DNA of 59,598 bases from a virus. The notes below the pieces were generated by a model. That model saw only the letters and a list, made by a program, of their open reading frames with translations. It was not told the DNA's origin and ran no database searches. The position numbers and the translations under genes were made by a program. The stretch is from IMG/VR virus record IMGVR_UViG_3300034782_000053; one strand, written 5' to 3'. Of the stretch, positions 2,784-56,347 are shown piece by piece (position 1 is the stretch's first letter; each line of letters starts with the position of its first letter).

Positions 2784-3063
2784 GTGCTTTCGCCTCCAGA
2801 AATTCGAGCGCTCGTTCGATCTGCTGAAAATCGATCTCGTAACCGCTCACACGTTTTCCATCGTCAGGACGGTCGAACCGTGTGGGCTTCGTAATCTTGC
2901 GCCATACACACCAGTTGAGAAATTCGGACACAAGTCGATCCTTGTAATCGAACTCGTCAACGACCCAGCCAGCGAGGTGTCCATAGGTCTGAAATCGACC
3001 ATCCTGTTCGCCACAGTTTTTGAGCGCGCAGAGCGCTGCCATCTTTGCTTCGCCGAGCGACAT
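2776..3063 (-). CDS. hypothetical protein (95 aa)
   Basis: ORF with an 8-nt overlap onto the downstream gene. Co-directional and compact. Confidence 0.55.
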   Translation of the reverse strand: MSLGEAKMAALCALKNCGEQDGRFQTYGHLAGWVVDEFDYKDRLVSEFLNWCVWRKITKPTRFDRPDDGKRVSGYEIDFQQIERALEFLEAKAHA

Positions 3064-3447: not shown

Positions 3448-3482
3448 ACCAAAAGTAGCATGTGCTACACAGCGGTGTCCAG
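3448..3482 (-). promoter_or_regulatory. candidate promoter/operator: T-tract + CTGGACA (-35-like) + N7 + palindrome GTAGCACATGCTAC (minus-strand reading)
   Basis: One of three copies of the same architecture. It sits 35 nt upstream of gene 3073..3420. Confidence 0.45.
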
Positions 3483-3527
3483 AAAAAAGGTCGAGGTCTT
3501 GCGGAGATGAATAGTCCTGAGGATGGA

Positions 3528-5468: not shown

Positions 5469-5951
5469 CTAATCGTCCTTGTCGAATATGGTGGAGTCAA
5501 AGATGCCGCCACCAAAGTCAGACATTTTCGGCATCTTTGGCATCTTCGGCATAGGCGGCTTCGGAGGCATCTTCATCCTCCATGGGCTCGTCTTCGGACG
5601 CATCTTCATCCTCCATGGGCTCGTCGGTGGCTTCGGACGCTTTGGACGCTTCGGACGCTTCGGCTTCTTGATAACCGGCTTCTTCAGCTTCTTCTTCGGG
5701 GGGATGGGTTCTTTGTCGCGAGGCGCGCGTTGGAAGCCATCGGTCACCATTTTGCCGTCGTACCATTCGGCTCCGCAACGGGTGCAGAACTTGTCGATGC
5801 CGGCGTCTGGATGGAGGTGCGAGAGCCCGGCGTTCTTCCCCATGTTGATGCCGAGCACATACCACTTGTGACCGATAAACCAGCAGACGGGCCGAGCCCA
5901 CCAGCGTTTGACGAGCATGGGGGTTTCGATTTTGGTGGTTCGATAGCCCAT
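5469..5951 (-). CDS. hypothetical protein with extremely basic Pro/Lys repeat tail (PKRPKRPKRPK, TSPWRMKM x2, PKMPKMPKM)
   Basis: ATG at 5951. Its DNA contains a 33-bp direct repeat x2 and a 9-bp ttcggacgc repeat x3-4 (5525-5670). Confidence 0.65.
   Translation of the reverse strand: MGYRTTKIETPMLVKRWWARPVCWFIGHKWYVLGINMGKNAGLSHLHPDAGIDKFCTRCGAEWYDGKMVTDGFQRAPRDKEPIPPKKKLKKPVIKKPKRPKRPKRPKPPTSPWRMKMRPKTSPWRMKMPPKPPMPKMPKMPKMSDFGGGIFDSTIFDKDD
5525..5670. repeat. in-gene direct repeats: 33-bp unit x2 (ttcggacgcatcttcatcctccatgggctcgtc) plus 9-bp ttcggacgc x3-4
   Basis: Read directly in the sequence. Encodes PKRPK / TSPWRMKM peptide repeats. Confidence 0.8.
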
Positions 5952-6263
5952 CTATGGAAGCTTCCCGACTCTTGAATCAGCAAACGGGCATTCAGCGCAG
6001 TCGTCGGGTGCGTTGCCGTTTTCATCAAAAAGGGGAGGCTTCGTTATTTCACAGCAGCAGTGGCACTCGCCAACTCCAGCAGCAGCCATAAGCTTGTTCT
6101 TTAGGTCACTGAAATCATGGGGCGACGTGTATACCCTCTCCAAGAAATCGTATAGATTGCTCGGCGCATGACCCGTGGCAAGATCAATGAAGTCCAGCGC
6201 ACATGCAACCTGCACCATCTCAGATCTTGTAAGCTCGACGGTTTCTTTTGATTCTGCTTTCAT
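5952..6263 (-). CDS. hypothetical Cys-rich protein (start 6263 supported by ATGA overlap with the upstream stop; ORF-track start 6311)
   Basis: cat at 6261-6263 overlaps the tca stop at 6260-6262. CHCCCE...CAECP motifs. Confidence 0.55.
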   Translation of the reverse strand: MKAESKETVELTRSEMVQVACALDFIDLATGHAPSNLYDFLERVYTSPHDFSDLKNKLMAAAGVGECHCCCEITKPPLFDENGNAPDDCAECPFADSRVGKLP

Positions 6264-6742
6264 TGTTGTCTCTCCCTCTCTCGGTTTAGTGAATCTATGA
6301 TGTTGACACACAGGAGTAATACGTTGTGAATGGTGCGAATTTCGTCCATCCTCAGGACGACGGTGTCATCGTCCTCGATGCCCTCCTCTCTGTCGACAAT
6401 GCGGCCCAATTCCAAGACGCGCTGAAGCGCTTGCTCGGGTGTCCAATCGAGGAGTAGCTCCCAGGCGCGCTGCTGCGTCTGTGGACAAGGCCCCATCGGG
6501 TAGTAGCCAGTGCCTCCACAGAAGCGGCAGATCCGCATCTGCATGCAAGAACGGCCCTCTTCGGTCAGATACCAGCACCCCCAAGGGTTGACGTCTCCAG
6601 GGCCTTCTTCTCGCTCCGAGAAGTCATGCCACTGTTCCAGGTACTCCATCATCTGCGAGCGATGAAACTCGTAGTATTCCTGCCGGCCAATGATCATCGG
6701 CGCATAGCCAGTGCCTCTGCATTTGATGCAAGTGCGTTTCAT
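6260..6742 (-). CDS. small protein with two DnaJ-type zinc-finger repeats (CxxCxGxG)
   Basis: CIKCRGTGY and CRFCGGTGY motifs. ATG at 6742 in an ATGA overlap with the upstream stop (6739-6741). ORF-track start 6910 is a 5' extension. Confidence 0.65.
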   Translation of the reverse strand: MKRTCIKCRGTGYAPMIIGRQEYYEFHRSQMMEYLEQWHDFSEREEGPGDVNPWGCWYLTEEGRSCMQMRICRFCGGTGYYPMGPCPQTQQRAWELLLDWTPEQALQRVLELGRIVDREEGIEDDDTVVLRMDEIRTIHNVLLLCVNIIDSLNRERERQQ

Positions 6743-7008
6743 AATCCCATCCACGAACGGATGATGACAAAGTACTTTCCGAGACCCGTCTTGGTCTCGA
6801 CCTCTGGATCCTCGATGTAGTATTTGCAGACGAAGGCCACGTGAGCCGGCTTGAATCGAGCATCCATATGCTTGGCGTGGAGGTAACTCCAGTTCTTGCA
6901 GATGCCCCACCAGGCGAATTTGAAGCTGGAGTGCTTGCAGGTGACGCAGCTCTCGACGATTCGGACCTCGTGGTCGGCAAGTATCTTGAGCTTGTTCTCA
7001 TCGGGCAT
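6739..7008 (-). CDS. hypothetical protein (89 aa)
   Basis: ATG at 7008. ATGA coupling to the downstream gene. Confidence 0.6.
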   Translation of the reverse strand: MPDENKLKILADHEVRIVESCVTCKHSSFKFAWWGICKNWSYLHAKHMDARFKPAHVAFVCKYYIEDPEVETKTGLGKYFVIIRSWMGL

Positions 7009-7064
7009 GGGGGCTCACCTCCCGCGGGCCGAGATGAGGAGAAATAGGACTGAGAAAGAACGTT

Positions 7065-7412
7065 TCAATGTCCTTCGACTTCCTCGACGCGAAGACGAGC
7101 CATCTCCGACTGAGCACATTGGCTCTTATTGAACGCTCGCCAATGGATGGCGACGATGTCACCCTTCTTCATTTCGAGCTGGTCACGAAATTCTTTCTTG
7201 GACCCAAGGCTAAGGCGATCACTGAGGATAGAGTGGTTGCCGTCGCGAATCAGAACAATCCGGACATCAGCGAAACGGTAGTCGAGGTCTGCTTCGATTT
7301 TGCAAAGCCCCTCTTGACCGTCCCATTCGACAGAAATGTCTTCCACCCACGTCAACGCAGAACAAAGATGGAGGTTCTGCCGCTTGGTCGTCTTGTAGTC
7401 CCACTGGACCAT
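7065..7412 (-). CDS. hypothetical protein (115 aa)
   Basis: ORF with ATG at 7412. Confidence 0.6.
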   Translation of the reverse strand: MVQWDYKTTKRQNLHLCSALTWVEDISVEWDGQEGLCKIEADLDYRFADVRIVLIRDGNHSILSDRLSLGSKKEFRDQLEMKKGDIVAIHWRAFNKSQCAQSEMARLRVEEVEGH

Positions 7413-7414
7413 CG

Positions 7415-7654
7415 CTACACTTCGTCGTCTTCCTCAGGTGGTCCTTCCTCGTCCATCCCCTCAACGTCCTCTTCGACCCACATCACGGCCTGCTCGAAGT
7501 CGTTGGTGTGTTGTGGTGTTTCTTGTGGGGTGCTCGACTTGGTGCCAGCTTCGAGCACGATGCCGTCACCATCGGCGATCGGGCTCATCCGCGTGATCGC
7601 GTCGGGCCATGCGCAGTGTGCCCCCTTCTCGTCGATAAACAGAATCCAACCCAT
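7415..7654 (-). CDS. hypothetical acidic protein (80 aa)
   Basis: Internal ATG at 7654 with AGGAAGG SD 7 nt upstream. The longer ORF-track version (7846) overlaps the upstream gene. Confidence 0.55.
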   Translation of the reverse strand: MGWILFIDEKGAHCAWPDAITRMSPIADGDGIVLEAGTKSSTPQETPQHTNDFEQAVMWVEEDVEGMDEEGPPEEDDEV

Positions 7655-7677
7655 GTCGTGCCTTCCTTTCTTTACTC

Positions 7678-8217
7678 TCAGCAGAACTTGACGCAGCCTC
7701 CTTGGGCTGCTGTCTCGAACGCAGCATACAGTTTTGTATAGGTTGAGAGAAACCATGGCCCCGTCTTTGCGGAATGCTCGACGACGCGGTATCTCCAGTT
7801 CGCAAAGTCTGTGGCGAGGCGCTGCGACCACTCGGGGCCGATACATCCTTCGTTGTCCCCAAAGAAAAGTATTCCGGCGAAGGTCGACTCGGCGTACTGG
7901 TCCGGATCGTCCCAGAGCGACTCGATTGCTTCAACGTCGTGAACGAGCCTGGCGAGCTGGTTTCGGAACTCGCCATAGAGCGCGTAGGCCCCGATGGGTG
8001 CTCTGCGAAAGTAACGAGTGTCGAAACAACCATAGAGAAGAATGTGGTTCAGGTTGCGAGCCATAACGATGGGCTCGGGGAGCCCTTTACCACGATTGAT
8101 CGACTCCATGATGTTGTAGAGGCATTCGTGGTCTTCTCGTTCGCAGAATTTGCCAAGGTCACCCTCGGCGCATTCGAGCTTCACCAGCGTGTCTGTGAAC
8201 TTGAGATCGAGTCCCAT
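7678..8217 (-). CDS. hypothetical protein (~180 aa)
   Basis: ATG at 8217, adjacent to the stop of the upstream gene (8220). Confidence 0.65.
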   Translation of the reverse strand: MGLDLKFTDTLVKLECAEGDLGKFCEREDHECLYNIMESINRGKGLPEPIVMARNLNHILLYGCFDTRYFRRAPIGAYALYGEFRNQLARLVHDVEAIESLWDDPDQYAESTFAGILFFGDNEGCIGPEWSQRLATDFANWRYRVVEHSAKTGPWFLSTYTKLYAAFETAAQGGCVKFC

Positions 8218-8219
8218 GG

Positions 8220-8543
8220 TTACTCCTGGTTCAGCGCTTCGACCCACGCCTCTTCAGAGCAGATATTGAACTTCACCATTTCCTTGCGGTAGTGCCACCA
8301 GCCTTTGCAGCGCATCTCCCAGATGACCTTGAGCGCCGCGTCAACGTCCTTCTCCTTCAGGCATGGGTACACGTTGCTTTGCCCCACGTCAAAGCCTCGC
8401 CGCCGCAGAAGCTCCTTCTGTGCTGACATAGAGCAAAGATCTCCCCTGAGCGTGAAGGTGTGCTCTTTGTCTCGCTCGCCCCTGGGGTCTTTTACCGCGT
8501 CCTGGAGGAGACCGAAGACGCCTTCGTCTATTGTGAAGCTCAT
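8220..8543 (-). CDS. hypothetical protein (107 aa)
   Basis: ATG at 8543. ATGA overlap with the upstream gene. Confidence 0.6.
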   Translation of the reverse strand: MSFTIDEGVFGLLQDAVKDPRGERDKEHTFTLRGDLCSMSAQKELLRRRGFDVGQSNVYPCLKEKDVDAALKVIWEMRCKGWWHYRKEMVKFNICSEEAWVEALNQE

Positions 8544-8953
8544 GGTTTGTTCTCCTCATCCGGGAACCCCGACGCCGCCAAGAGCGAGTCAGGAAACGAT
8601 GGCAGTGACCTTAGCTTGGCGAGAGCTTTCTCCCGACGGTCTGGGTCGTACTTGTTGAGCAGCTCGTCGGCCCGTCTCAGCGCCTCGTGCGCCTTCTCGG
8701 TGTCGAGCGGGCTGAAGAGGTTGAAATAGTGCTCCATGACGTCGGCCTGCTCCTCTTGCATCATTCGGGTTCGGGCCTTCCACATGTCGCGGTCGTCACG
8801 GTAGGTCACAGCATTCTTAAGGAGTTCAATGACGATCTCGCTCGTCGTCTTCTCACCGTCCAATTCGTCCCCAAGATGATTAATGACCCAGTCGCGGATC
8901 TCGCGGTAGCCGACCTCGGGGACCTCTCTTTTAGGGAGCGTGGGGATTCCCAT
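8540..8953 (-). CDS. hypothetical protein (137 aa)
   Basis: ATG at 8953. Confidence 0.65.
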   Translation of the reverse strand: MGIPTLPKREVPEVGYREIRDWVINHLGDELDGEKTTSEIVIELLKNAVTYRDDRDMWKARTRMMQEEQADVMEHYFNLFSPLDTEKAHEALRRADELLNKYDPDRREKALAKLRSLPSFPDSLLAASGFPDEENKP

Positions 8954-8956
8954 GGC

Positions 8957-9205
8957 TCAGTCCCCGTATTTCCGTTCGACAATGAGCGCGCAGGTCCCCT
9001 CTTCGTCCTCGTTGGGGAGGCGGACGTTGAACGTCGTGTCCTCGCCGTGATTCTCGATCCACACGGTCACATCGACATCGATCGCACGCACCCTGACGTC
9101 GACAACCTCGACCTGCTCCTCCTCGAAATACGCGCGAAGCGCCTTTGCGAGTCGACCCTGAGCCGCACCCTTGGTGACGGGGATCTGATCATCAAGTCTT
9201 GGCAT
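8957..9205 (-). CDS. hypothetical acidic protein (82 aa)
   Basis: ATG at 9205. Confidence 0.6.
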   Translation of the reverse strand: MPRLDDQIPVTKGAAQGRLAKALRAYFEEEQVEVVDVRVRAIDVDVTVWIENHGEDTTFNVRLPNEDEEGTCALIVERKYGD

Positions 9206-9491
9206 TGTCTTCTTTCTCCTTGCAGTCGTGATTGAGCCATTTGGCCCGTGACGGAACGAACTTGGTGACGAGCCCGGTTGCGAGGGCTGCGCCTATCGGA
9301 TAGGCCGCGAGCGACCTGACGTGCTCTGCAAAAATGACTTCACGGATGACGATGACCCAGACGATGCCGACGACCATCGACCAGAAGGCCGGAATGAGGA
9401 AATCGGTTCTATGGGCCACAATTCGAGTGTTGATGCCGATAAACAGCACCCAGATGAACGCAGCAAAAAAGATCTTTGCGAACTCAGCCAC
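9192..9491 (-). CDS. small membrane protein (2 TM), start uncertain (possible GTG at 9491; ORF-track start 9659 overlaps the upstream gene)
   Basis: Hydrophobic segments FAKIFFAAFIWVLFIGI and FWSMVVGIVWVIVI. No ATG lies between the upstream stop and the first TM. Confidence 0.4.
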   Translation of the reverse strand: MAEFAKIFFAAFIWVLFIGINTRIVAHRTDFLIPAFWSMVVGIVWVIVIREVIFAEHVRSLAAYPIGAALATGLVTKFVPSRAKWLNHDCKEKEDNAKT

Positions 9492-9741
9492 GGAGCGCCT
9501 TGAGCTTTCCCAGCATGAAGCCGTAGGCCAGGTGGCCAGCCGAGAGAATCGGCTTGCCACTGACGACAGGGATGACCGCTCGGAGCGCGTAGACGCCCGG
9601 AGAGTCTTCTTTCCAGATCCAGTAGAGCTTGTGCTTCTCGTCGTCCGTCTTGTAGACATCGATCATGAAGTTCATGCCGAGCCACTTGAGCGAGTAGCTC
9701 TTCTGCTTCTTTTGCTTTGGCGCATCTTTGCGACGCATCAT
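9484..9741 (-). CDS. hypothetical basic protein (85 aa; MMRRKDAPKQKKQK...)
   Basis: ATG at 9741-9739 in a TGATG overlap with the upstream stop (9743-9741). ORF-track start 9798 is an extension. Confidence 0.55.
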   Translation of the reverse strand: MMRRKDAPKQKKQKSYSLKWLGMNFMIDVYKTDDEKHKLYWIWKEDSPGVYALRAVIPVVSGKPILSAGHLAYGFMLGKLKALRG

Positions 9742-9896
9742 CAATACCCCAATAATCTCCAGGTGTCCCACATGGAGTAGATGTAGCTGAAGTAGCAAGA
9801 ATCGCAGCGGTATTCACCGAAAAGAAACCAGTCACAGTACTCCATGCGATGGCAGACCGGGCACTCGCTCTTCTCGTAAATCGACTCCTCACCCAT
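9741..9896 (-). CDS. small zinc-ribbon protein (51 aa; CPVC...CDSC)
   Basis: ATG at 9896, 14 nt downstream of the palindromic element GTAGCATATGCTAC. Confidence 0.55.
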   Translation of the reverse strand: MGEESIYEKSECPVCHRMEYCDWFLFGEYRCDSCYFSYIYSMWDTWRLLGY

Positions 9897-9909
9897 AGTG
9901 CAGAGAGAG

Positions 9910-9956
9910 GTAGCATATGCTACATTTCTTGTCCAGTGAAAAAGTAGCAGATGCAA
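9910..9956 (-). promoter_or_regulatory. candidate promoter/operator: T-tract + CTGGACA + N6 + perfect palindrome GTAGCATATGCTAC
   Basis: 14 nt upstream of gene 9741..9896. A second GTAGCAGATGCAA half-site lies upstream. Confidence 0.45.
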
Positions 9957-10241
9957 TTAGTCGTCGAGGCCACCGTCTAGGATGTAGCGACCCATTCGGC
10001 ACTCGTCTGTGGGCGATCGCTCAATCTGCCCGTGAGAGGCACAAGGCGTCTCGCAGTACCAGGGCTCGTCGTGAACGGCGCAGGAATACTCGCCTGGCTT
10101 GTCGCCGACGAGATGCTGACATCGCTCGGGACCATTGAAGCCCACGGCCTTGAGGTTATCTTCTACGATGCCGAGCTTTGGGTCGTCCACGATGACGACC
10201 ATGGTGGTTGTGCAGCAGTAGCCGCAGCGTAGACAGATCAC
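9957..10241 (-). CDS. YkgJ/UPF0153-like CxxCxxCC zinc/iron-chelating domain protein
   Basis: N-terminal CLRCGYCC signature. GTG start at 10241 in a GTGA overlap with the upstream stop. Further Cys/His follow. Confidence 0.55.
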   Translation of the reverse strand: MICLRCGYCCTTTMVVIVDDPKLGIVEDNLKAVGFNGPERCQHLVGDKPGEYSCAVHDEPWYCETPCASHGQIERSPTDECRMGRYILDGGLDD

Positions 10242-10635
10242 TCGGGGTTACCACCGGGGTTGAGACGAGGCTCGGCCTCATCGTAGATAGCTTTGATCTC
10301 GTCGCCAGCCTTCTCCAGCCTGTTGGCTTCGTCCTCGGTGAGCTGGCCCGAGTGATAGGCGCGGTACAGGGACACGAGACCTTCCTGGAGGTGAAGGAGA
10401 GCGGGACCTGACCATAGCACCTTGCCGATGACCTCATTGGCATTGAAGTCCTCGTCGAGCCCATTCTCCTCAGGAAAGTCAACCGATGAGAGGCCGCAGA
10501 CGTGATCGATCTCCATCTTCTTACAGAACGCCTTCATCCCTTCGATATCATCAGGATCGAACCACTTGCCGTCGTTCTTGCGGCCGTCTTTGCAGTAGAT
10601 GTGAAAACGACCCTCGTCGAGTGAAACAAACCAAA
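10238..10635 (-). CDS. hypothetical protein (~132 aa; probable TTG start after a GGAGGAG SD)
   Basis: ORF-track N-terminus (to 10873) overlaps the upstream gene. TTG at 10635, 9 nt after GGAGGAG. Confidence 0.45.
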
Positions 10636-11394
10636 TCAATCTGCCGACTCCTCCCAGGGGTCTGGAGGCCCCTGTTCCTCCATCAGGGCGATCCGCGCTT
10701 CGACGGCTGGCAGGTCGATGGTAAAGGGGTTGCCGGAGCGGAAGCCGCCGATGGTGACGACGTACTGGTAATCCTCGAAGCCGCCGCTCGGCTCGATGAG
10801 CGTGAGGATGGCGCCGCCGCCAATGCCCAGCGTGTCCTGAAGCTCGATGAGGACAGCCCCCTTCTTCCCCCACTGCTTCTCGGGGTTATCGCGCAGGAAA
10901 CGGAGAATCTTCAGCTCCTCGTGGTAGGTCAGCTCGTGGCCCAGCTCCCAGATAGTTCGATGGGTCCTGAAGAAGGAAAGCTCTTCGTCGAGATCGCCGC
11001 ACCACATGTTGCGGCTGAGCGCCTGCCACGCTTCGAGCGCGAACATGCCAGCGTGAGTATTTCCATCGCTGAAGGGGAACTCCATTCGGAACAGATCGTC
11101 CCGGAGCATCTTGGGGCTTTTCGATCCGTAGTCGGCCCCGAGCATGGTGATGAGCGTCCCCATGTCCTCGTGCATCGTTTCGAGCTTGAAGCGGACAACG
11201 ACCCAACACCATGGGTCAGAGAGCACCTGGACGGAGAAGTGGTCCTTTCCCGAGGGGTGCTCTGGATGAGGCACAGCGCGCTTGACCATCTTCATAGGCA
11301 GGCGCACCTGCCCTCCGTCCTCACGACGACTGCACTGAAGCTTGTGCTGGCCCAACATTCTGCACTCGGGGCATCGCTCTTTTTCCTTGGACAT
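10636..11394 (-). CDS. hypothetical protein (252 aa) with N-terminal CPEC zinc knuckle
   Basis: ATG at 11394 with an AAAGGA SD. Preceded by a copy of the CTGGACA + palindrome element. Confidence 0.7.
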   Translation of the reverse strand: MSKEKERCPECRMLGQHKLQCSRREDGGQVRLPMKMVKRAVPHPEHPSGKDHFSVQVLSDPWCWVVVRFKLETMHEDMGTLITMLGADYGSKSPKMLRDDLFRMEFPFSDGNTHAGMFALEAWQALSRNMWCGDLDEELSFFRTHRTIWELGHELTYHEELKILRFLRDNPEKQWGKKGAVLIELQDTLGIGGGAILTLIEPSGGFEDYQYVVTIGGFRSGNPFTIDLPAVEARIALMEEQGPPDPWEESAD

Positions 11395-11427
11395 CACGAT
11401 GGTCCTTTCGCTCGCACATATCCTAGG

Positions 11428-11477
11428 GGTAACATATGCAACCTACCTTGTCCAGAGGATATTGCATGTGCTATATT
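11428..11477. promoter_or_regulatory. divergent regulatory region: CTGGACA + N6 + GTTGCATATGTTAC (degenerate palindrome), plus TTGCATGTGCTAT
   Basis: Lies between minus gene 10636..11394 and the plus-strand methyltransferase (11485). Confidence 0.4.
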
Positions 11478-11484
11478 GCCGCCG

Positions 11485-12231
11485 ATGAAACAGGAACCGC
11501 TCTTTTTTCGCGGGGGACCGCGATTTGTCACTTCACAGGTCGTTAAGCAGGATGCGCTTGACTTTTTGGGAAGTCTTGAGGACGAATCGGTCGACCTCGT
11601 CGTGACCGACCCTCCCTACGAATCACTGGAGAAACACCGAGCAAAAGGGACAACGACCAGGCTCAGCCACTCGAAATCCTCTTCAAATGACTGGTTTCAA
11701 ATCTTCCCAAACTCACGCTTCGATGATCTGTTCAGAGTACTGTACCGCGTCCTCAGGATGGATTCACATTGCTACCTGTTCTGTGACCAGGAAACGATGT
11801 TTGTGGCAAAGCCGATCGCCGAAGAGGCCGGGTTCACGTTCCACAAGCCGCTCGTATGGGATAAGGTCGCCATCGGCATGGGCTATCACTACAGAGCCCG
11901 GTACGAACTGATCCTCTTCTTCGAAAAAGGAAAGCGAAAGCTCAACGACCTCTCCATTCCAGACGTCATCAGAGAGAAACGCATCTACAAGGGCTACCCC
12001 ACCGAGAAGCCAGTCCCCGTCCTCCGGACGCTCATCAGCCAAAGCACTGAGCCTGGCGAAGTCGTCTGCGACCCCTTCTGCGGGAGCGGCTCGGCCGGCG
12101 TCGCGGCTGTCGAGCTGGGGCGCATCTTCTGCGGAAGTGATATTTGCGACGAAGCGATCGAAGTTTCTACACGGCGAATCAAAGAGGCTCAAGCTCAGGA
12201 TCGATCAGAAGAGCCCGCTGCTGATCAGTGA
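11485..12231 (+). CDS. DNA methyltransferase, beta-class (N6-adenine or N4-cytosine); orphan (no cognate restriction enzyme in the window)
   Basis: Motif IV VVTDPPY near the N-terminus precedes motif I FCGSGSAG near the C-terminus. Typical MTase N-terminal GD..L..L...SVDLVVTDPPY. The only convincing plus-strand gene. Confidence 0.85.
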   Translation: MKQEPLFFRGGPRFVTSQVVKQDALDFLGSLEDESVDLVVTDPPYESLEKHRAKGTTTRLSHSKSSSNDWFQIFPNSRFDDLFRVLYRVLRMDSHCYLFCDQETMFVAKPIAEEAGFTFHKPLVWDKVAIGMGYHYRARYELILFFEKGKRKLNDLSIPDVIREKRIYKGYPTEKPVPVLRTLISQSTEPGEVVCDPFCGSGSAGVAAVELGRIFCGSDICDEAIEVSTRRIKEAQAQDRSEEPAADQ

Positions 12232-12985
12232 GTCCTGGCGCTACGCGGGCCAGCTCTTCCCTCAGTCCTGGGTCCTCGATCGCATCGGCGAAGGCGAACC
12301 TCTGGTCAGAGGTGATCGCGAGCTGGAGCGGCAACCTGAGCACGTGGAAGAGAGATTCTTCGTCCTCCAGTGAGTTGATCAGGACGAACTGCTGGTTCTG
12401 CGTCAGCCACTGCTGCGTCTGCAGGAACTCCATCTTCTCGCCGTCCGGGGCTTCAAGTATCAGCTCAAAACGATGAGGATATGTCAGCACCCGCGCCTTG
12501 CGGGCGAGCCAGCCCTTCCACTCGGGAGCGAGCTGGTCGATGAGCTGTCGCTGTCGCTGCTCGTCGAGGAATCGGTACTCGCCCAGAAAGTTCGACCACG
12601 CTTCATCCGTCCCGATGCTCTCGATCATCTGAAGACGAAGCTCTGGGTTGAGGTTGTCGGCATAGAGCGCAGCGTCGGCCCTGTCTTTCTCGGTCAGACT
12701 CAGTGAGAGGCACGCTCGCTGCTCCGCGTTGAGATAGCTGTAGACAGGGAGCGCACCAATATCGCCGCTCGTCGCGAAATCGCCGCCGCGGTTCACGATC
12801 TTCCAGCGCTCGTTGTATTCGAGGTGAGCCCAGGCGTCGTAGAACTTGACAAGGTCACTCATGGGGTAGCCCATCTCGGCGAGAACGACTGCCTCCTCGA
12901 TGTCGTCCTGGTCGATGAGAAGATTCCCCTCGTCGTCGATCTCGATGCCGACGTAGTCATCACCGACCTTGAACATGCACTCCAT
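12179..12985 (-). CDS. EMGY-domain family paralog 1 (268 aa)
   Basis: N-terminal MECMFKVGDDYVGIEIDDEGNLLIDQDDIEEAVVLAEMGYPMSD. ATG at 12985. Confidence 0.8.
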   Translation of the reverse strand: MECMFKVGDDYVGIEIDDEGNLLIDQDDIEEAVVLAEMGYPMSDLVKFYDAWAHLEYNERWKIVNRGGDFATSGDIGALPVYSYLNAEQRACLSLSLTEKDRADAALYADNLNPELRLQMIESIGTDEAWSNFLGEYRFLDEQRQRQLIDQLAPEWKGWLARKARVLTYPHRFELILEAPDGEKMEFLQTQQWLTQNQQFVLINSLEDEESLFHVLRLPLQLAITSDQRFAFADAIEDPGLREELARVAPGLTDQQRALLIDPELEPL

Positions 12986-12987
12986 GG

Positions 12988-13821
12988 CTACTCCGTGCCT
13001 TCAAGATACTTGACGTAGCGGCCAATCTGCCAGGCGCGCTCCTCGGGGAAAAAGCGTTCGTGAAAATCGATTGTTTGTGCAGTCTGAGGAGCATCCGTTG
13101 CCGGAAACCAAATGCCCTCTTCGTAGACAAGAGTATCCTCCCATGTGATTTCTGGGTATTCCTTGAATACCCTAAAATAAGAGGCACCCTTGGCCATGGC
13201 GTCAACGAAATGGTAGAGCTTGGGAAAGCCCATGCCGCCTGGGTCCCACGCGCGCTTGGGGTCTTGATCGATCGCCATCCCCAAGATCCATCGAAGGTGT
13301 GCCTTTACTATGTCGTTGAGGTAGGCCATGTAGTTCCCGTCAAATTCTTGACCCCCATATTCACGAAAACCACTCTGAATTGCTCTTTCGCCAGAGATGT
13401 AATCACCATATTCGAGCGTCCACCACTCCTTGAACTTTCGGTACTGGCCGATAGCTTCCTCATACAGCTCGCCTTGCAGGGGCTCTCCCTCAGTCCCCAG
13501 TTCCCGGATCGCCTCGGCAACCTGATCCATCCAGGGGATGAACTCATCGAACTCGGCGTAGTCCGCGGAGTGCTGCAGGCAGTCGAGCAGGTAGGTAATC
13601 ATCAGCTCGTAGGGGTCGAGTGGCACCCGCTTGAGGAGAAACCGGAGTGTCCTTTGGCTCAACCTCCGAAGGAACGCAAGACACTCGGGTGTGTCGTAGC
13701 CCATCTCTTCGAGCACTTTGGCTTCTTCGATATCGTAGCCGTGAACGTCGAAGCTCCCGTGTTCAAAGAATTCGATCTCGATCTGAGTATTCTCACAGTT
13801 CACAGGAACGATCACTGACAT
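12988..13821 (-). CDS. EMGY-domain family paralog 2 (277 aa)
   Basis: MSVIVPVNCENTQIEIEFFEHGSFDVHGYDIEEAKVLEEMGYDTPEC. ATG 13821 in a TGATG overlap with the upstream stop. ORF-track start 13860 is an extension. Confidence 0.8.
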   Translation of the reverse strand: MSVIVPVNCENTQIEIEFFEHGSFDVHGYDIEEAKVLEEMGYDTPECLAFLRRLSQRTLRFLLKRVPLDPYELMITYLLDCLQHSADYAEFDEFIPWMDQVAEAIRELGTEGEPLQGELYEEAIGQYRKFKEWWTLEYGDYISGERAIQSGFREYGGQEFDGNYMAYLNDIVKAHLRWILGMAIDQDPKRAWDPGGMGFPKLYHFVDAMAKGASYFRVFKEYPEITWEDTLVYEEGIWFPATDAPQTAQTIDFHERFFPEERAWQIGRYVKYLEGTE

Positions 13822-14549
13822 CACGCCTCCAAATACTGCAAGAGCCGAGCGAGCTGCCACGATTCCTCTCGGAACTCGACCTCTTCGATCTCGCTGGCGG
13901 TCGGGTCTTCGAGGTCTCCAGTGGCCCTGGCATAGTCCGACATGATGATACGAAGCTGGCTGACGGTCGTATCAATGTCTCCGCTGGCCATGTCTTCTAG
14001 CAGGTTGTCCTCGTTCAGGATGTACTTGAGAAAATCCTTGAGCAGGACGATGTACTCATTGAGGACTTTTTCCATCTCTTCGCGGTCGTAAGGAACCGGC
14101 TCGCTGCGCACACCATACTGACGCAACCACTTCAGCATCAGGTCGGCACGAATCCACATGCTCTCTTCCAGCTCGACGTTGTCGACGTTCATGTTGTGAG
14201 CACGCGCTATCGTTATGACATCCCCAGCCACCCACTTGAAATCTGGAACCGCCTCTCCAAACTGCTGAGCGACGTGAGCAAAGCAGTCGAGGACGTATTC
14301 GACGGCCGTCCCAGGAATGTCTTCGATGCCGGCGTTGAATGCGAGGCCCGTCCACGACCCCAGGAGAAAGTTGACCATGTCGCCTTCAAGTTCCCTTGCC
14401 GCGCTCAGGCAATCCGAGGGCTCATATCCAAGCTCTTCGAGCGTCAAGTCCTCGCTGAAGTCGTAGCCCACGAACTCGAAGGATCCGTCCTCATAGATGA
14501 TGACGTCCTGACGCTCGTCGTCGCAGTAGATAGTGATCGAAACCGGCAC
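13821..14549 (-). CDS. EMGY-domain family paralog 3 (242 aa)
   Basis: GTG start at 14549 with GAGGAGGA SD. ...VGYDFSEDLTLEELGYEPSDC. Confidence 0.75.
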   Translation of the reverse strand: MPVSITIYCDDERQDVIIYEDGSFEFVGYDFSEDLTLEELGYEPSDCLSAARELEGDMVNFLLGSWTGLAFNAGIEDIPGTAVEYVLDCFAHVAQQFGEAVPDFKWVAGDVITIARAHNMNVDNVELEESMWIRADLMLKWLRQYGVRSEPVPYDREEMEKVLNEYIVLLKDFLKYILNEDNLLEDMASGDIDTTVSQLRIIMSDYARATGDLEDPTASEIEEVEFREESWQLARLLQYLEA

Positions 14550-14551
14550 CG

Positions 14552-15316
14552 TCAGTCCTCCTCGAAGATGATGTTGAGAGCTTTTTCAAAAATCTCTCTA
14601 TTAAATTCCTCGAAAGACTCTTCCCTGACGTCACCGATATCATTGAGACCGCCGCCCGCTTCCACGACTTCATCGACAGCAAGTTCTCTGGCGACCTCTC
14701 TTATCCTATGTACGATTTCCTCTACATTGTCCCATGCATCAATGCGTTTCGCCGCAGACTGCCCACAATCCAACGCCCCCTTGCTGCTTCTGACGTACAA
14801 AGAAATGATCGTTAGGCAAATCTTTTGAACACGGCGCTCCACCTCAGGGTCAGGCCCTCGCCCCACGACGACTGTGGGATACATGGCCTTGTCCTCTCTG
14901 CGCCACCGCGCTTCTTTTTTCAATTGAGTCCAGTTGCGGATCATTTTCTTTGCCCAGACCCAATCGCCTCTTTTGTAACCGTCGCCCTCCTCGATGACAT
15001 TCATCATTCTTTCGAGATGGTTCGCCATGTCCGTCGGGACCGCCTCTCGGACCATGTAAAAATACTCTGCGATCATGCCGTGAAGCAGCAGCCGAAGCTT
15101 TTCGCCACACAAATAGGTCGAGAAAATAACGAGGAATCGAAGGGGCCGATTCTGATAGTCTTCAAGCGTAAACAGACAGTCTTCTCGATACCCCATCTCT
15201 CGAAGCGTCTCGGCTTCTTCCTCGTCGAAGTTCTCAATCTCCATGGACCCGTCTTCGTAGAGGATGAAGGTGTGACGCTCATCGTCACAGACCAACTCGA
15301 AGGTCTTCGACTTCAT
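14552..15316 (-). CDS. EMGY-domain family paralog 4 (254 aa)
   Basis: Internal ATG 15316 adjacent to the upstream stop. MKSKTFELVCDDERHTFILYEDGSMEIENFDEEEAETLREMGYREDC. Confidence 0.8.
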   Translation of the reverse strand: MKSKTFELVCDDERHTFILYEDGSMEIENFDEEEAETLREMGYREDCLFTLEDYQNRPLRFLVIFSTYLCGEKLRLLLHGMIAEYFYMVREAVPTDMANHLERMMNVIEEGDGYKRGDWVWAKKMIRNWTQLKKEARWRREDKAMYPTVVVGRGPDPEVERRVQKICLTIISLYVRSSKGALDCGQSAAKRIDAWDNVEEIVHRIREVARELAVDEVVEAGGGLNDIGDVREESFEEFNREIFEKALNIIFEED

Positions 15317-15735
15317 CGCTCCCGCCGTTCGAGCATCGCCGCCGCGACGCGAGCGAGGACGAATCCTCCAATGATCGCGCCAATTGTGAGAAACCAACCG
15401 TTGCCAGAGCCGTTGCCACTGGCAACAGTGCCGAAGCCTTCGAGTCCCGTCGCCGGGACGATCTGCTTCCACATGGTGGGCTGTGAGATCAGGTCGCCTG
15501 GAACTGAGCCAGGGGGAACGACCGTCAACGTGCGCGTGGGGCCGCTGCGAATATCGTAAGGAGGAAGCACGGTGACAGGCGGCGGGATCGCTGGAAGCCC
15601 AAACTCCTCAGCGATGTACTTGCGCGCTTCCGTTGGCGTCCCATAGACCTGAAGGACGTGAGTGGGGGCCGCGTATCGAACCTTCCCCTCGTTGAAACCA
15701 GGATCAAACTCGGTGACGTAGTCGTATGTCGTCAT
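15313..15735 (-). CDS. C-tail-anchored membrane protein (140 aa), MYEY-like N-terminus (MTTYDYVTEF), interleaved in the EMGY array
   Basis: C-terminal GNGSGNGWFLTIGAIIGGFVLARVAAAMLERRER (NG repeat + TM + basic tail). ATG 15735. Confidence 0.7.
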   Translation of the reverse strand: MTTYDYVTEFDPGFNEGKVRYAAPTHVLQVYGTPTEARKYIAEEFGLPAIPPPVTVLPPYDIRSGPTRTLTVVPPGSVPGDLISQPTMWKQIVPATGLEGFGTVASGNGSGNGWFLTIGAIIGGFVLARVAAAMLERRER

Positions 15736-15744
15736 GAAACTCTC

Positions 15745-16701
15745 CTACAAATGCCAAGCGACAATTTCTCCCTCTCGATCGATCACTCGAAAACCCTCCG
15801 TCTGCTGGTTTGCTGTTCCGATGTCCGTGACGATCTCGAAATGGCGCTTCGCTGACTCCAGGTCGGGATACCAGACCGTCGTGTTGATTTCTCTGCCACC
15901 CTGCGCATGCTGGTCCCAATAGTAGTCGACGAACTCGACACCATACGGACCATCGGGATCTTTCTCCGGAACCCATGGGCGCTCTGGTAGTGGCGGGACT
16001 TGGTCTTCGAGGCCAAAGCTCGCGAGCACGTGATCCATGTCGTTTTTGTTATCCATAGTCCAGAAGTCTGGCCACATCCCTGGGGGCCTGTAGTCGTCGT
16101 CATACTCCCCCATGTCGTGCTCGGTGTAGTACAAGTCGATTACGTCGTTGGTGATCAGGGCCGATCCGCGTTTCCACTTCGCTATCGACTTATCGTTGAT
16201 AACAAGCTCGTTCTCAAAAATCTCAGGGATGTGCTGAAGACTGACATCTTCCAGTATCCGGGAAGGGTCCTCAACATGCACCGAGTGGAGAACGATGCTG
16301 ATCCCATAGCTGTCCGAAAGCGCTCCGATGATGCGAGCGATACTCCTGCTTCTGCTGTCAAAATCTTCCAGGGACTTCTTGAGGAAAGTAGTCAAGTAGT
16401 CCAGAAACTCGTCAAACTCCATGTCGTATCGTTCCGTGAACTCCTCACCGTCAAGCTCGAACGTTGTTTCGGCGCCGGTGACGCCGTCCATGAAGTCTTC
16501 CCACTGACCGTCCTTCTCCAGCAGCGCACGGAAGTCTTTCCAACCCGTCGAAAGCATCATGCATTCTGTGGGCTCATAACCCATCTCGGCGAGCGTCTCG
16601 TCTTCGGAGGCATCGTACTCGAAGATGAGCAGGTCGCCATCATCATCAATGGTGGCGTCGTATTCATTGCCGTCGCATTCAATCTTCAAATCGAAGGACA
16701 T
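15745..16701 (-). CDS. EMGY-domain family paralog 5 (318 aa)
   Basis: MSFDLKIECDGNEYDATIDDDGDLLIFEYDASEDETLAEMGYEPTEC. Confidence 0.8.
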   Translation of the reverse strand: MSFDLKIECDGNEYDATIDDDGDLLIFEYDASEDETLAEMGYEPTECMMLSTGWKDFRALLEKDGQWEDFMDGVTGAETTFELDGEEFTERYDMEFDEFLDYLTTFLKKSLEDFDSRSRSIARIIGALSDSYGISIVLHSVHVEDPSRILEDVSLQHIPEIFENELVINDKSIAKWKRGSALITNDVIDLYYTEHDMGEYDDDYRPPGMWPDFWTMDNKNDMDHVLASFGLEDQVPPLPERPWVPEKDPDGPYGVEFVDYYWDQHAQGGREINTTVWYPDLESAKRHFEIVTDIGTANQQTEGFRVIDREGEIVAWHL

Positions 16702-16702
16702 C

Positions 16703-18388
16703 TCATCGCCTCACGTAGGTTAGTAGCTCATTTATGGTCTCTCCGAGCCGCTGTGTCGCCGCCTGAAGGGGCGTAACCGTGAAGGGGTTGTAGACCTTTT
16801 CCTCTGGCCAGCCCTCGACAGCGTCGAAAACAGCGTTTGCGACGGCGATGATTACGTCGTAGGAGGAAAGCGCCGCCGCCTTGATCGGCTCAGGCATGTC
16901 TTCCTGCGCTTCGACATGAGCGCGCTTCAGCTCGGCGAGAACGACCAGCGGAGGAGCAACGTCTCGGATGTTCTCGACTGATCTCTCGACGTAGGGGAGC
17001 TGGTCCGGCGTCGGGTCGTTGAATTTCTCCTGAGTATCCCGATGCCAGCCGTACTCATACCACTTCCACACCCACATGTTGATGATGCCCAGCTCCTCTT
17101 TGAGATGGGCCACCTCGTAGACAAGGGAATACTGCCACCTCGCCCACTCGTCTTGCCCTGAGTCTCCTCGCCTGGTCAGCTTTCCGAGAGAGCCAAGGAT
17201 GCAGTGAGCAGCCTCAGCGATGTTCTGGGCGCCCAGCTCCAGCATGGTTGCGGATCCGAAGTTGCCGCCCTCAGGCATGCCGCCGTACATCTCGGTGCGG
17301 AGCGGGCATTTCCACTCTTGCGGGTTCTCGTCTGGTGATTCGCGTGATGCAAGGAGCCACTGGGTCTGCATCCACCCCTGGCCAAACTTATCGATCTGCG
17401 GGTGTTTGTGCATCTCTTCACGCCACACGCTCTCGTCGCCTACTTTCTTCCACGGGCTGGCATAGGGCGAAGAAAGATATTCCTGAACTTCGTAGGAACT
17501 CAGCTCGTCGTTTTGAATGCGCACCTCTGTGATAGTCTCTTCGTTTTCGAGCATCGCATGAGCCAGCGCCTCGATCGCCTTCAAGATCTTCACGTTAGCC
17601 TTGCGCGTCCTGTAGATGGTCTGGACCGCGTCGATGACGACGATGGGTCCGGGCTCGACCTCGACCATCTCCATACGAGTTCCGCCCGGCCTCGTTCCGC
17701 CCTCTACCTCTTCGTAGACCCCCTGAGTTCGCCAGGCCCACGCGATGGCAACGGGTTTGTTTCGCCTCTTTTCAACTTTGGAGACGAGATAGAGGCGAGC
17801 GTGGGGACTTTCTATGGTGTCCCAGGCGTATTCGGGGCGGCTCGAACCAGAAACCGACCAATCAAAGATGTCATCAAAGAAGGCGACCCGCGGGTCGATC
17901 GATTCGAGCATCTCGACGCGGTACCCATCGAAGTTGATGATAACGTCTGGCATCGTGTTGTCGAAAAAAGCGCTCCTTGCCTCCGTTACCCACAGCTCTG
18001 CAGCCTCTTCGAGTGGCATCTTCCTCTGCCCGATGTAGACGCCGTCGTCGTGCCCTCGCTCGATGGCCCGCTCGATGAAGTTTCGCCTCCAACCAAGCTC
18101 GATCAGCTCCGCGGGCTCGTCTCCCGTCCATTTTTTGCCGATTCCCTGTTGTTGAACCGCATCGTCGACGACGCGGATCATCTCGATGTCGGTGGCGATA
18201 CCATCATCTATTCCATGCTCGGTGTAGGCCCTTGTGATGCGAGCCCACAGCGGCAGCGGATAGCCCATCTCTTCGAGGACCAGCGCTTCTTCGGCGTCCT
18301 CGTCACTGAAGTCGGTCTTGCCGATCCAGCGGCCTGGAAGCAGCTCGATGCGCTTGCCATCTTCTGGCATCCTCAGGACGAGTCCCAT
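16703..18388 (-). CDS. EMGY-domain family paralog 6 (561 aa, largest member)
   Basis: MGLVLRMPEDGKRIELLPGRWIGKTDFSDEDAEEALVLEEMGYPLP. Long unique C-terminal region. Confidence 0.8.
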   Translation of the reverse strand: MGLVLRMPEDGKRIELLPGRWIGKTDFSDEDAEEALVLEEMGYPLPLWARITRAYTEHGIDDGIATDIEMIRVVDDAVQQQGIGKKWTGDEPAELIELGWRRNFIERAIERGHDDGVYIGQRKMPLEEAAELWVTEARSAFFDNTMPDVIINFDGYRVEMLESIDPRVAFFDDIFDWSVSGSSRPEYAWDTIESPHARLYLVSKVEKRRNKPVAIAWAWRTQGVYEEVEGGTRPGGTRMEMVEVEPGPIVVIDAVQTIYRTRKANVKILKAIEALAHAMLENEETITEVRIQNDELSSYEVQEYLSSPYASPWKKVGDESVWREEMHKHPQIDKFGQGWMQTQWLLASRESPDENPQEWKCPLRTEMYGGMPEGGNFGSATMLELGAQNIAEAAHCILGSLGKLTRRGDSGQDEWARWQYSLVYEVAHLKEELGIINMWVWKWYEYGWHRDTQEKFNDPTPDQLPYVERSVENIRDVAPPLVVLAELKRAHVEAQEDMPEPIKAAALSSYDVIIAVANAVFDAVEGWPEEKVYNPFTVTPLQAATQRLGETINELLTYVRR

Positions 18389-19476
18389 CAGTCCACCTCT
18401 ACCCAGAACGACTTACTTGATAACTTTGCTCCTCCAGCGCTCTTATGGCGGGTAATCTTTCGTGTTTTAGAGACAATCTCCCAGTCTGGACTCACCATAA
18501 AGATCTTGCCGGGGTCCATGTAGTCGAAGTCGTCATCAATTTCAAACACCGGAGGGGAAGGGTTTGTTTTTTTCGCACGCAACACGAATCGTACCCAGCT
18601 CCCACTACGGGGATTGACAATAAACCGATCAATGTAGTCAAGCGCTGCACGAGCAGCCTCTTCGCTGTTGTAGTAAGCGAAGAAGATTTCAAAGGGTTCA
18701 GCGATGGACACGGCCCATCGCCCGTCATGCTGTCCTTCAAGCGGAGAGTACTCCCAGCCTTGATAGACCCAGGGCTCCTCCAGCTCGCACGACCCCTTGT
18801 ATCCGCCCGTGATCCCGTTGAGCAATGCCTTCAGGTTGCGCTGCTCATCCAGCTCTTTGAAGGTAGTCTCGTCATCCAGGCCAGATGACCACTCGACGCT
18901 ATCGTTGACGAAGTCTCCCTCGTACTTGCCGTAATACCACTCATTCCAGGAGACCGCCTCTTTGCCGCCAATCTGCAGAGATGCCCGGCACTTTCCCTCC
19001 ACCAAGGAACCAGGCATTTCGGCCCCCTCCTCGATGGTCATATTTCCACCATCCTCAGGACGTATTTCAAACACTGTCGTCTGACTGACGAGCCCGCCGA
19101 GCTTCTTCAAGATGTCTCGTTGGTTTTCCCAGTCCACCTCGAAATAATTGACAATGTGAAACACCGCCTCGGTGATGTCCTCTTCCCACTCTGGACCGTA
19201 CCGCGCCTCGATCGTTTTCGGGTCCGCGTTCTCCAAGAACGAGTTGAGCCTCCCTGGGTCGACGAACAATGCAGCGAGCCCGTGTTCGTTGTAGCTCTGG
19301 ACAAGCTCTGCAATCGGCGACAGCTCGTAACCCATCTCGCCGAGTACGATCTCTTCCTCAAGCTCCTCCTGTGTGTAGCCGGCGACGTCGAGTCCTTCCT
19401 GTGAGACGTAGCAGAAGACCATCTCCGAGATGAGGTCGCTCTCGTCGATCACGAATTCGACGCCCGAGTAATTCAT
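18388..19476 (-). CDS. EMGY-domain family paralog 7 (362 aa)
   Basis: ...DVAGYTQEELEEEIVLGEMGYELSP. ATG 19476. ATGA overlap. Confidence 0.8.
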   Translation of the reverse strand: MNYSGVEFVIDESDLISEMVFCYVSQEGLDVAGYTQEELEEEIVLGEMGYELSPIAELVQSYNEHGLAALFVDPGRLNSFLENADPKTIEARYGPEWEEDITEAVFHIVNYFEVDWENQRDILKKLGGLVSQTTVFEIRPEDGGNMTIEEGAEMPGSLVEGKCRASLQIGGKEAVSWNEWYYGKYEGDFVNDSVEWSSGLDDETTFKELDEQRNLKALLNGITGGYKGSCELEEPWVYQGWEYSPLEGQHDGRWAVSIAEPFEIFFAYYNSEEAARAALDYIDRFIVNPRSGSWVRFVLRAKKTNPSPPVFEIDDDFDYMDPGKIFMVSPDWEIVSKTRKITRHKSAGGAKLSSKSFWVEVD

Positions 19477-21361: not shown

Positions 21362-21364
21362 CTG

Positions 21365-22495: not shown

Positions 22496-22497
22496 GG

Positions 22498-23541: not shown

Positions 23542-23543
23542 GA

Positions 23544-24590: not shown

Positions 24591-24602
24591 GGTTCTTCTC
24601 CC

Positions 24603-25328: not shown

Positions 25329-25330
25329 GC

Positions 25331-27177: not shown

Positions 27178-27179
27178 GG

Positions 27180-31993: not shown

Positions 31994-31995
31994 CC

Positions 31996-56227: not shown

Positions 56228-56277
56228 TCCCATCCTCCTGAGGGTGGAGTTCTCTCTGAATTTCTCAGAAGGGGGCC

Positions 56278-56300
56278 GGCGTGATAGAACATATCACGCC
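56278..56300. other. perfect hairpin palindrome GGCGTGATA-GAACA-TATCACGCC in the largest intergenic gap of the cluster
   Basis: 9-bp stem and 5-nt loop. Followed on the plus strand by TTTAAATGTTAAAG. A 13-mer motif copy is nearby (56319-56331). Confidence 0.5.
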
Positions 56301-56347
56301 TTTAAATGTTAAAGCAAGCGTCTTGAGGATGAACGAACCTTGGCAGC

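Follow-up and report, generated by a model that had tools for sequence, protein, structure and literature searches.

The window, by which we mean the whole 59.6-kb stretch of viral DNA analyzed here, is phage-like and nearly orphan: one ORF matches a portal PHROG and a NUDIX hydrolase is present, and no family was assigned to about 60 other ORFs. Nearly all of the genes lie on the minus strand. Neither a tRNA nor a terminal repeat was found in the window, a fragment from which genes may be missing. A megablast search of positions 8000–13000 against GenBank phages gave no match, and two large window proteins had no relatives in IMG/VR. In a set of 5.8 billion proteins, the 845-aa protein had no homologs, and the gene behind module 3 (see below) matched only itself.

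The region 5952–11394 is unusually dense in small, zinc-ribbon-like proteins with paired CxxC motifs, including the first genes behind modules 1 and 3, and is preceded at 5469–5951 by a gene for a 160-aa protein with an extremely basic, repetitive Pro/Lys-rich C-terminus (KKPKRPKRPKRPKPP...PKMPKMPKM). A long run of very acidic proteins (pI of approximately 4.0–4.7) occupies 12179–29526 and 35048–35587. Many of them have in common some 55 conserved residues at the N-terminus and look like a tandem paralogous family, which also occurs in the Group A relatives described below; some members give faint Imm5-like Pfam matches. At 29523–35036, two adjacent MoxR-like AAA ATPases, whose nearest phage matches are in N4-like phages (24–25% identity), are followed by a DUF2201 metallopeptidase/VWA protein, the N-terminal part of which also matches an HNH endonuclease PHROG.

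The first-pass annotation had reported three copies of an element consisting of a T-tract, a CTGGACA box, and a 14-bp palindrome. A search of the window for CTGGACA-N(5-8)-GTWGCAYATGYTAC returned exactly three matches, all on the minus strand (3455–3482, 9910–9936, and 11429–11455), and none of 100 dinucleotide-preserving shuffles of the window contained a match, in agreement with that report. The 14-mer palindrome alone, with at most three mismatches, was found at seven sites in the window against 0.74 expected. A looser core, TWGCANMTGCWA, with one mismatch allowed, revealed two extra palindrome-like sites directly upstream of CTGGACA in two of the copies, at 9944–9957 (ATTGCATCTGCTAC) and 11461–11474 (ATAGCACATGCAAT), with centers 34 and 32 bp, respectively, away from those of the main palindromes. 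The three copies fill three of the approximately five truly non-coding gaps in the window, and these gaps are 60, 107, and 87 bp long. The copies at 9910, 3455, and 11429 are numbered modules 1, 2, and 3 (W1, W2, and W3), and their components and neighboring genes are as follows.

9944–9957, minus-strand reading: auxiliary palindrome-like site of module 1, overlapping the stop codon of the upstream gene
9939–9943, minus strand: T-tract TTTTT of module 1, just 5′ of the −35-like box (read from the sequence)
9930–9936, minus strand: CTGGACA of module 1, with the −35-like hexamer TGGACA at 9935–9930
9910–9923, both strands: perfect 14-bp palindrome of module 1, GTAGCATATGCTAC
9897–9909, minus strand: stretch of module 1 covering the 13 nt from the palindrome to the ATG at 9896, Shine-Dalgarno sequence absent
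9741–9896, minus strand: first gene behind module 1, encoding a 51-aa CxxC...CxxC zinc-ribbon-like protein (Zn_ribbon match only at E = 0.053)
3483–3488, minus strand: T-tract TTTTTT of module 2 (read from the sequence)
3476–3482, minus strand: CTGGACA of module 2 with the −35-like box (motif search)
3455–3468, both strands: palindrome of module 2, GTAGCACATGCTAC, 7 nt after CTGGACA
2776–3063, minus strand: second gene of the operon behind module 2, encoding a 95-aa protein that is a weak winged-helix candidate
11449–11455, minus strand: CTGGACA of module 3 (motif search)
11429–11442, both strands: imperfect palindrome of module 3, GTTGCATATGTTAC, with the proposed −10 hexamer TACCCC at 11431–11426
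11461–11477, plus strand: mirror-image module for the methyltransferase, with the 14-mer ATTGCATGTGCTAT (11461–11474) and the −10 hexamer TATATT (11472–11477)
11485–12231, plus strand: N6/N4 DNA methyltransferase gene, divergent from module 3 and with no other convincing gene on its strand

Some details of the initial description required correction. The palindrome is perfect in module 1 but imperfect in the other two: the central pair is asymmetric in module 2, and two positions are non-symmetric in module 3. A T-run precedes the box in modules 1 and 2, while module 3 has the AT-rich sequence ATATCCT instead. The distance from the module 1 palindrome to the ATG, given as 14 nt, is actually 13 nt. 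About half of the window genes possess a GGAG-type Shine-Dalgarno sequence, and the gene behind module 1, whose stop codon overlaps the start of the next gene (TGATG), has none. A literature search for the 14-mer gave a sole match, in Epstein-Barr virus, where GTAGCATATGCTAC forms the core of the site bound by EBNA1 in oriP. We set this match aside as a coincidence between biologically unconnected sequences.

An exact-motif scan of metagenome contigs yielded 24 loci (L002–L025), which were sorted by protein comparison with the window. Five of them (L002, L006, L008, L018, and L021) constitute Group A, in which the methyltransferase shows 63% identity to that of the window and several other proteins show 25–38%, and three others (L004, L016, and L017) constitute the third sub-lineage of relatives. 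A profile search with the gene adjacent to the methyltransferase further provided longer Group A contigs (L147–L149 and L151) and one closer relative (L150). The proteins that these relatives share with the window are only 25–38% identical to their window counterparts, but 81% in L150. The remaining motif matches were discarded as relatives. Twelve come from a repeat family of rhizosphere bacteria, which lacks protein similarity to the window and was counted as a single unrelated event, and four (L003, L005, L009, and L014) have no relation to the window and are probably chance matches. The rhizosphere and soil contigs (L007, L010–L013, L015, L019, L022, L023, and L025) share a repeat-rich intergenic element with a perfect 28-bp palindrome, AATTCGTGTAGCATATGCTACACGAATT, flanked by CTGGA/TCCAG and lying among repeats of about 70 nt beside ordinary bacterial genes; L020 and L024 seem to be related to this family more distantly. 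The exact motif was absent from IMG/VR, and the sole match of a relaxed-motif search, CTTGACA...GTAACA in front of a sliding-clamp-like gene of a T4-like phage, was judged unrelated.

The first-pass annotation had made its reading depend on conservation of the palindrome in related genomes, and the module is indeed kept in three related phage sub-lineages. Each of the Group A contigs that reach the region (L002, L018, L148, L149, and L151) carries two modules, namely CTTGCCA-N6-GTAACACATGCTAC near the methyltransferase and CTGGACA-N6-GTAGCACATGCTAC 2.7 kb further on. In L150, a 30-nt block corresponding to 11446–11477 is identical to that of the window, with differing flanks, and when the orthologous gaps on the divergent side of the methyltransferase were aligned across five genomes, only the block of T-tract, −35-like box, and palindrome proved conserved. 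In two Group A contigs, L006 and L008, the gene upstream is identical and the module is kept, and the genes that follow are unrelated from the ATG onward. At the sequence level, the module is thus a phylogenetic footprint across three related metagenomic phage sub-lineages.

Twelve unique instances from the window and the related phages were then compared (A1 and A2 denote the two Group A copies). They share a layout consisting of a T-run, 0–3 nt, C-T-(G/T)-G-(A/C)-C-A, 6 or 7 non-conserved nt, the 14-mer with the consensus GT(A/T)(G/A)CA-YA-TG(C/T)TAC, and a pyrimidine-rich trinucleotide. The T-run, 4–6 nt long, occupies an equivalent position in 11 instances, the exception being W3. In every instance the −35-like box lies 6–7 nt ahead of the 14-mer and TG-N-TAC is present at its 3′ arm. 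The hexamer TGGACA, found in W1–W3 and Group A copy 1, matches the −35 consensus TTGACA at five of six positions, as had been claimed from the outset, and TTGCCA in Group A copy 2 also matches at five. The spacer is 17 bp in the N6 copies and 18 bp in the N7 copies. Among the −10 hexamers (TACCTC, TACTTT, TACCCC, TACCTT, and TACCAA), T−12 and A−11 are always present and T−7 in about half, and the extended −10 element TG-(C/T)-TAC is invariant in all 12 instances as well as in the methyltransferase copy. In module 1, TGGACA and TACCTC (9912–9907) are separated by 17 bp, and the right arm of the palindrome contains the TG (9915–9914, minus strand) and the TAC of the hexamer; in module 2, the spacer to the proposed −10 hexamer TACTTT (3457–3452) is 18 bp.

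Two features count against a sigma-70 assignment: the −10 hexamers TACCTC, TACCCC, and TACTTT are poor, and most copies keep G at the second position of the −35 hexamer in place of the stronger TTGACA. The conserved G could reflect a different sigma specificity. The conservation of TGGACA is partly an ascertainment effect, because the metagenome matches were chosen for an exact CTGGACA, and outside the window and Group A it is partly by construction. A sigma-54 promoter (TGGCAC-N5-TTGCA) was rejected, as GG and GC are 12 or 13 nt apart in CTGGACA-N6/7-GTAGCA and not the required 10 nt.

A predicted transcription start is similarly placed in most copies. A purine occupies position 11 past the palindrome, the 8th nt after the hexamer, in eight of ten unique instances. 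This purine is the A of the ATG in L004, L006, and L016. In W1 and Group A copy 1 it precedes the ATG by 3 nt, and in the latter copy the gap between stop codon and ATG totals 52 nt. In L004 and L016, the ATG 10 nt past the palindrome may not be the true start; L016 has an in-frame ATG with a Shine-Dalgarno sequence about 40 nt further downstream. The geometry of the promoter, from which we infer the start, places that of module 1 at A9899, the 8th nt past the −10 hexamer, with the ATG 3 nt further on. The leaders of W2, W3, and A2 are approximately 25–35 nt long, with a clear Shine-Dalgarno sequence in W3 and A2 and only AAGG in W2, where 34 nt separate the palindrome from the ATG at 3420. 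Module 3 is predicted to drive the gene at 11394–10636 through a leader of about 25 nt carrying AAGGA. The same variant, GTTGCAYATGTTAC-CCCTAG, is found at the equivalent position in L016.

The methyltransferase junction contains a further arrangement. A plus-strand ORF of 581 aa (from 10486) spans the junction, but it is an artifact of an open frame: the methyltransferase corresponds to its final 248 codons and begins at ATG 11485, and the rest (10486–11484) overlaps the minus-strand gene 10636–11394. This start places module 3 in an 87-bp divergent intergenic region. The bases of the module 3 box read TTGTCC on the plus strand (11448–11453), which constitutes the −35 hexamer of a mirror-image methyltransferase module with the order TTGTCC, N7, ATTGCATGTGCTAT, and TATATT, the last 3 nt of ATTGCATGTGCTAT opening the −10 hexamer. 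A promoter scan of the gap found TTGTCC-18-TG-TATATT, in which TTGTCC matches TTGACA at four of six positions and TATATT matches its consensus at five of six. The 8th nt downstream of the latter is the A of ATG 11485; as only 7 nt separate TATATT from the ATG, the methyltransferase mRNA is predicted to be leaderless. In module 1, the auxiliary site at 9944–9957 read on the plus strand gives a spacer of 20 bp and no good promoter geometry, and may therefore be a second operator.

A control element linked to the methyltransferase itself, such as a C-box or an autoregulatory site of a restriction-modification system, was rejected. No C protein or endonuclease adjoins the methyltransferase, and none of 80 viral (IMG/VR) loci with a methyltransferase of the same family (44–69% identity) carries the palindrome (at most two mismatches) beside a promoter, indicating that the module belongs to the phage lineage and not to the methyltransferase.

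The dyad could act as a folded structure or as double-stranded DNA. As single-stranded DNA, the palindrome folds with −2.8 to −3.0 kcal/mol (module 1: −2.8) into a 5-bp stem with a 4-nt loop, and the fold is lost in W3 and A2. The covariation score over 13 sites was 0.098, compared with 0.101 in shuffles; pair 9-18 is broken in five of the 13 sequences and pair 10-17 in two. Among the palindrome columns of the 13 sites, six of 14 are invariant and two more are at least 90% conserved, with arms GTAGCA/TGCTAC, and the would-be loop CAYATG is conserved as well as the stem. Since the sequence is conserved and the pairing is not, the constraint appears to act on double-stranded sequence, as for a dimeric protein. 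The weak fold, the lack of covariation, and the pair-breaking variants led us to consider the palindrome most likely to be a dimeric protein operator, centered near −16.5 and probably serving a repressor. An intrinsic terminator was rejected, as the stem is weak, a T-run follows only W2, and the upstream T-tract has no stable stem before it.

The first-pass annotation had suggested looking for an HTH regulator gene nearby. No DNA-binding regulator family (HTH, RHH, or other) was found among the approximately 75 window ORFs with Pfam and PHROGs, nor was a cI/cro-like HTH gene, an integrase, or any other lysogeny gene found in the window. On the plus strand, no gene besides the methyltransferase has a coding score, which argues against a repressor gene on that strand. 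As a lead only, the AlphaFold model of the 95-aa protein encoded at 2776–3063 (pLDDT 55) has an H-H-H-E-E-H topology, and its best Foldseek matches in the PDB were the winged-helix proteins PadR, Pex, RTP, and MarR, none of them significant (E ≥ 0.14, TM ≤ 0.44); we regard it as a candidate winged-helix DNA-binding protein. Elsewhere in the window, the true intergenic gap at 56234–56347 contains an inverted repeat with 9-bp arms, GGCGTGATA-TGTTC-TATCACGCC, overlapping a promoter-like TTGCTT-N18-TG-A-TATGTT ahead of a 615-aa gene, and the two together may constitute another promoter-operator pair, distinct from the modules.

A similar layout is found in bacterial genomes. A relaxed scan of one bacterial genome per species yielded 39 loci, about half of them from Nitrospirota, and nearly all carry CTTGACA-N6-GTAACAYATGT-TAC(A/C)WT, that is, a consensus −35 hexamer, a 17-bp spacer, and a good −10 hexamer in the same register as the phage module. 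No proteins are shared between these loci and the window, and no SOS genes adjoin them. Some have surroundings typical of a regulator and its operator. The Nitrospirota promoters precede chrB-chrA-type operons. In a Chloroflexi MAG (L120, 3230–3315), two tandem GTAGCAYRTGCTAC-ATGTTATT copies with GTAGCA palindromes follow a consensus TTGACA in the space that separates a TetR-family gene from a divergent membrane-protein gene, and in an Acidobacteria MAG the promoter precedes what we take, from reading its sequence, to be a ribbon-helix-helix antitoxin. The bacterial TTGACA-N6-GTAACAYATGTTAC promoters resemble those of the phages in the identical register of −35, palindrome, and −10 and in T-runs ahead of the −35 hexamer, and their GTAACA half-sites also occur in the phage copies A2, the plus strand of W3, L016, and L017. 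They differ in their consensus hexamers, in arms that are mostly GTAACA where the phages have GTAGCA, and often in a further half-site 8–10 nt downstream. The downstream genes and likely regulators (ChrB, TetR, and the RHH antitoxin) are heterogeneous, indicating the same architecture and not one family. These loci show this register of −35, dyad, and −10 to be a common design for repressible promoters, and the phage factor is not pinpointed by them.

Within the Nitrospirota/Thermodesulfovibrionia MAGs (L112, L113, L116, L119, L121, L130, L132, L133, L139, L143, and others), CTTGACA-N6-GTAACAYATGTTAC is accompanied by a further ATGTTACA half-site 8–10 nt downstream, and the sites precede ChrB-like genes, small-protein-chrB-chrA operons, or neighboring operons. 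The pattern suggests an operator conserved at the level of the phylum, with ChrB as a possible regulator.

We favor the interpretation of the first-pass annotation, a promoter with an overlapping dimeric operator. Its −35 hexamer varies around TTGACA and lies 17–18 bp from a TG-extended TAC-NNN; the predicted start at or beside the start codon, the footprint in three sub-lineages, the failed hairpin tests, and the same geometry in bacteria lend it further support. Judged by these patterns, each copy is probably a compact sigma-70-type promoter with a palindromic operator, together filling the whole intergenic gap. The T-tract would act as an UP-like element, followed by a near-consensus −35 hexamer (TGGACA; TTGCCA in relatives) and a spacer of 17–18 bp, and the weak −10 hexamer (TAC and three pyrimidine-rich nt) would be compensated by the extended −10 TG. 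We infer that the host RNA polymerase would begin transcription at the purine 8 nt past the hexamer, which lies at the start codon or no more than 3 nt from it in several copies, giving leaderless or near-leaderless mRNAs; in other copies, a leader of approximately 25–35 nt with a Shine-Dalgarno sequence would be made. The 14-bp dyad GTAGCA-YA-TGCTAC would span about −23 to −10, with its center near −16.5, and would be bound by a putative dimeric DNA-binding protein, of phage or host origin, that competes with RNA polymerase and thereby represses transcription. At the methyltransferase junction, two such modules stand back to back with overlapping −35 boxes, an arrangement that would place the methyltransferase and the minus-strand genes under a common factor.

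The most serious alternative, though an improbable one, retains the promoter and has the palindrome bind an activator, or else a sigma-like or appropriator factor specified by the phage, defining a phage-specific temporal class such as middle genes. The core hexamers would then be too weak alone, and the module would turn genes on and not off. The weak −10 hexamers and the conservation of a non-consensus TGGACA speak for such a factor. No classical repressor was found in the window, and many small CxxC zinc-ribbon-like proteins are encoded between 5.9 and 11.4 kb, including by the first gene behind module 1; the phage promoter activators P2 Ogr and P4 Delta are zinc-finger proteins. The extended −10 TG, however, can offset weak hexamers without an activator, and the bacterial look-alikes pair strong hexamers with the same dyad, as repression predicts. 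The position of the dyad also argues for repression. A dyad at about −16.5 overlapping the −10 hexamer is a typical repressor position in bacteria, whereas known activators bind at −41.5 or further upstream or, as in the MerR type, within spacers of 19–20 bp, compared with 17–18 bp here; because the dyad center lies over the −10 region, repression is favored.

A more far-reaching variant, which we consider unlikely, is that the T-tract, CTGGACA, and the GTAGCAYATGCTAC dyad together form the recognition element of a lineage-specific device, either a phage-encoded sigma-like or zinc-ribbon factor or an unrecognized polymerase. If so, the module would represent a new class of promoter, and the orphan phage lineage that carries it has proteins with hardly any database relatives. 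In a milder variant, the module could mimic the operator of a host global regulator, which would reveal the host and a phage strategy of borrowing a host repressor.

It is quite improbable that the module is the promoter of a phage RNA polymerase encoded outside the window, either a T7-like single-subunit enzyme or an N4-like virion enzyme that recognizes a hairpin. Three copies of a long conserved element do lie in a region of small genes, the phages that best match both AAA ATPases are N4-like, and a fragment without terminal repeats may lack genes. The module nevertheless consists of two parts, the gap between them varying between N6 and N7 and the spacer not being conserved, while T7-type promoters are contiguous, and the drift of its −35-like box is toward TTGACA and not away from it. 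The large window ORFs gave no RNA polymerase match; in particular, no gene for a giant virion RNA polymerase was found, the largest window ORF being of 845 aa with no polymerase match. Hairpin promoters of the N4 type have a stable stem of 5–7 bp and a 3-nt loop, maintained by compensatory changes. A promoter of this type was rejected because the hairpin here is weak, with a 5-bp stem and a loop of 4 or 2 nt, does not survive in W3 and A2, and lacks covariation.

Least probable of all is a palindrome that works as an RNA or DNA structure (a terminator or attenuator, a processing site, or a recombination boundary for cassette exchange): a consensus scan calls the W2 palindrome and its TTTT terminator-like and the L006/L008 difference directly behind the module is a mosaic junction, but the stem has five pairs (three G-C) and about −3 kcal/mol, a T-run follows only some copies, the sequence including the would-be loop CAYATG is kept while the pairing is not, the fixed distance to the −35-like box and to start codons is left unexplained, and a promoter that is the sole conserved DNA in the region would coincide with a mosaic junction in any case.

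The promoter-operator arrangement that we prefer has well-known counterparts. The operators of lambda (OR/OL) and phage 434 are short dyads in or overlapping sigma-70-type promoter cores, those of 434 being 14-bp dyads. Like the window sites, they occur in several copies, some of them paired at a spacing of about three turns of the helix, and include divergent promoters placed back to back. Unlike them, the window sites are dispersed over 8 kb before unrelated small genes and not gathered in one immunity region, their sequence is unrelated, and no cI/cro-like, integrase, or lysogeny gene was found with them in the window. The gp71 "stoperators" of mycobacteriophage L5 and the conserved inverted repeats of phiC31 are dispersed actinophage repressor sites, and likewise consist of one site that recurs in many short gaps between the genes of co-directional operons and is kept in related phages. 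The L5 sites, however, are asymmetric 13-mers that can block transcription inside operons, whereas every window site lies at a fixed distance from a −35-like box and only 3–5 copies were seen in 59.6 kb; in addition, no repressor was found in the window. Bacillus phage GIL01, whose promoters are controlled by host LexA, is a precedent for phage operators without a repressor of their own. The Gram-positive LexA box CGAACATATGTTCG shares with the window dyad the central CATATG and an overall 14-bp dyad, but GAAC/GTTC is replaced by TAGC/GCTA, so that two of four positions differ in each arm. A LexA box (GAAC-N4-GTTC) was thus rejected, since the arms are TAGC-N4-GCTA or TAAC/GTTA and only the central CATATG matches.

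The element is therefore of a well-known type in a new sequence and a new lineage, and no new promoter-operator mechanism is involved. For a phage lineage with almost no recognizable genes, the module is one of the few functional handles: it marks the boundaries of transcription units and predicts leaderless or short-leader starts, and the 14-bp site can serve as bait for the regulator, whether of phage or of host. As a DNA signature, the motif has already recovered three related sub-lineages from sediment metagenomes.
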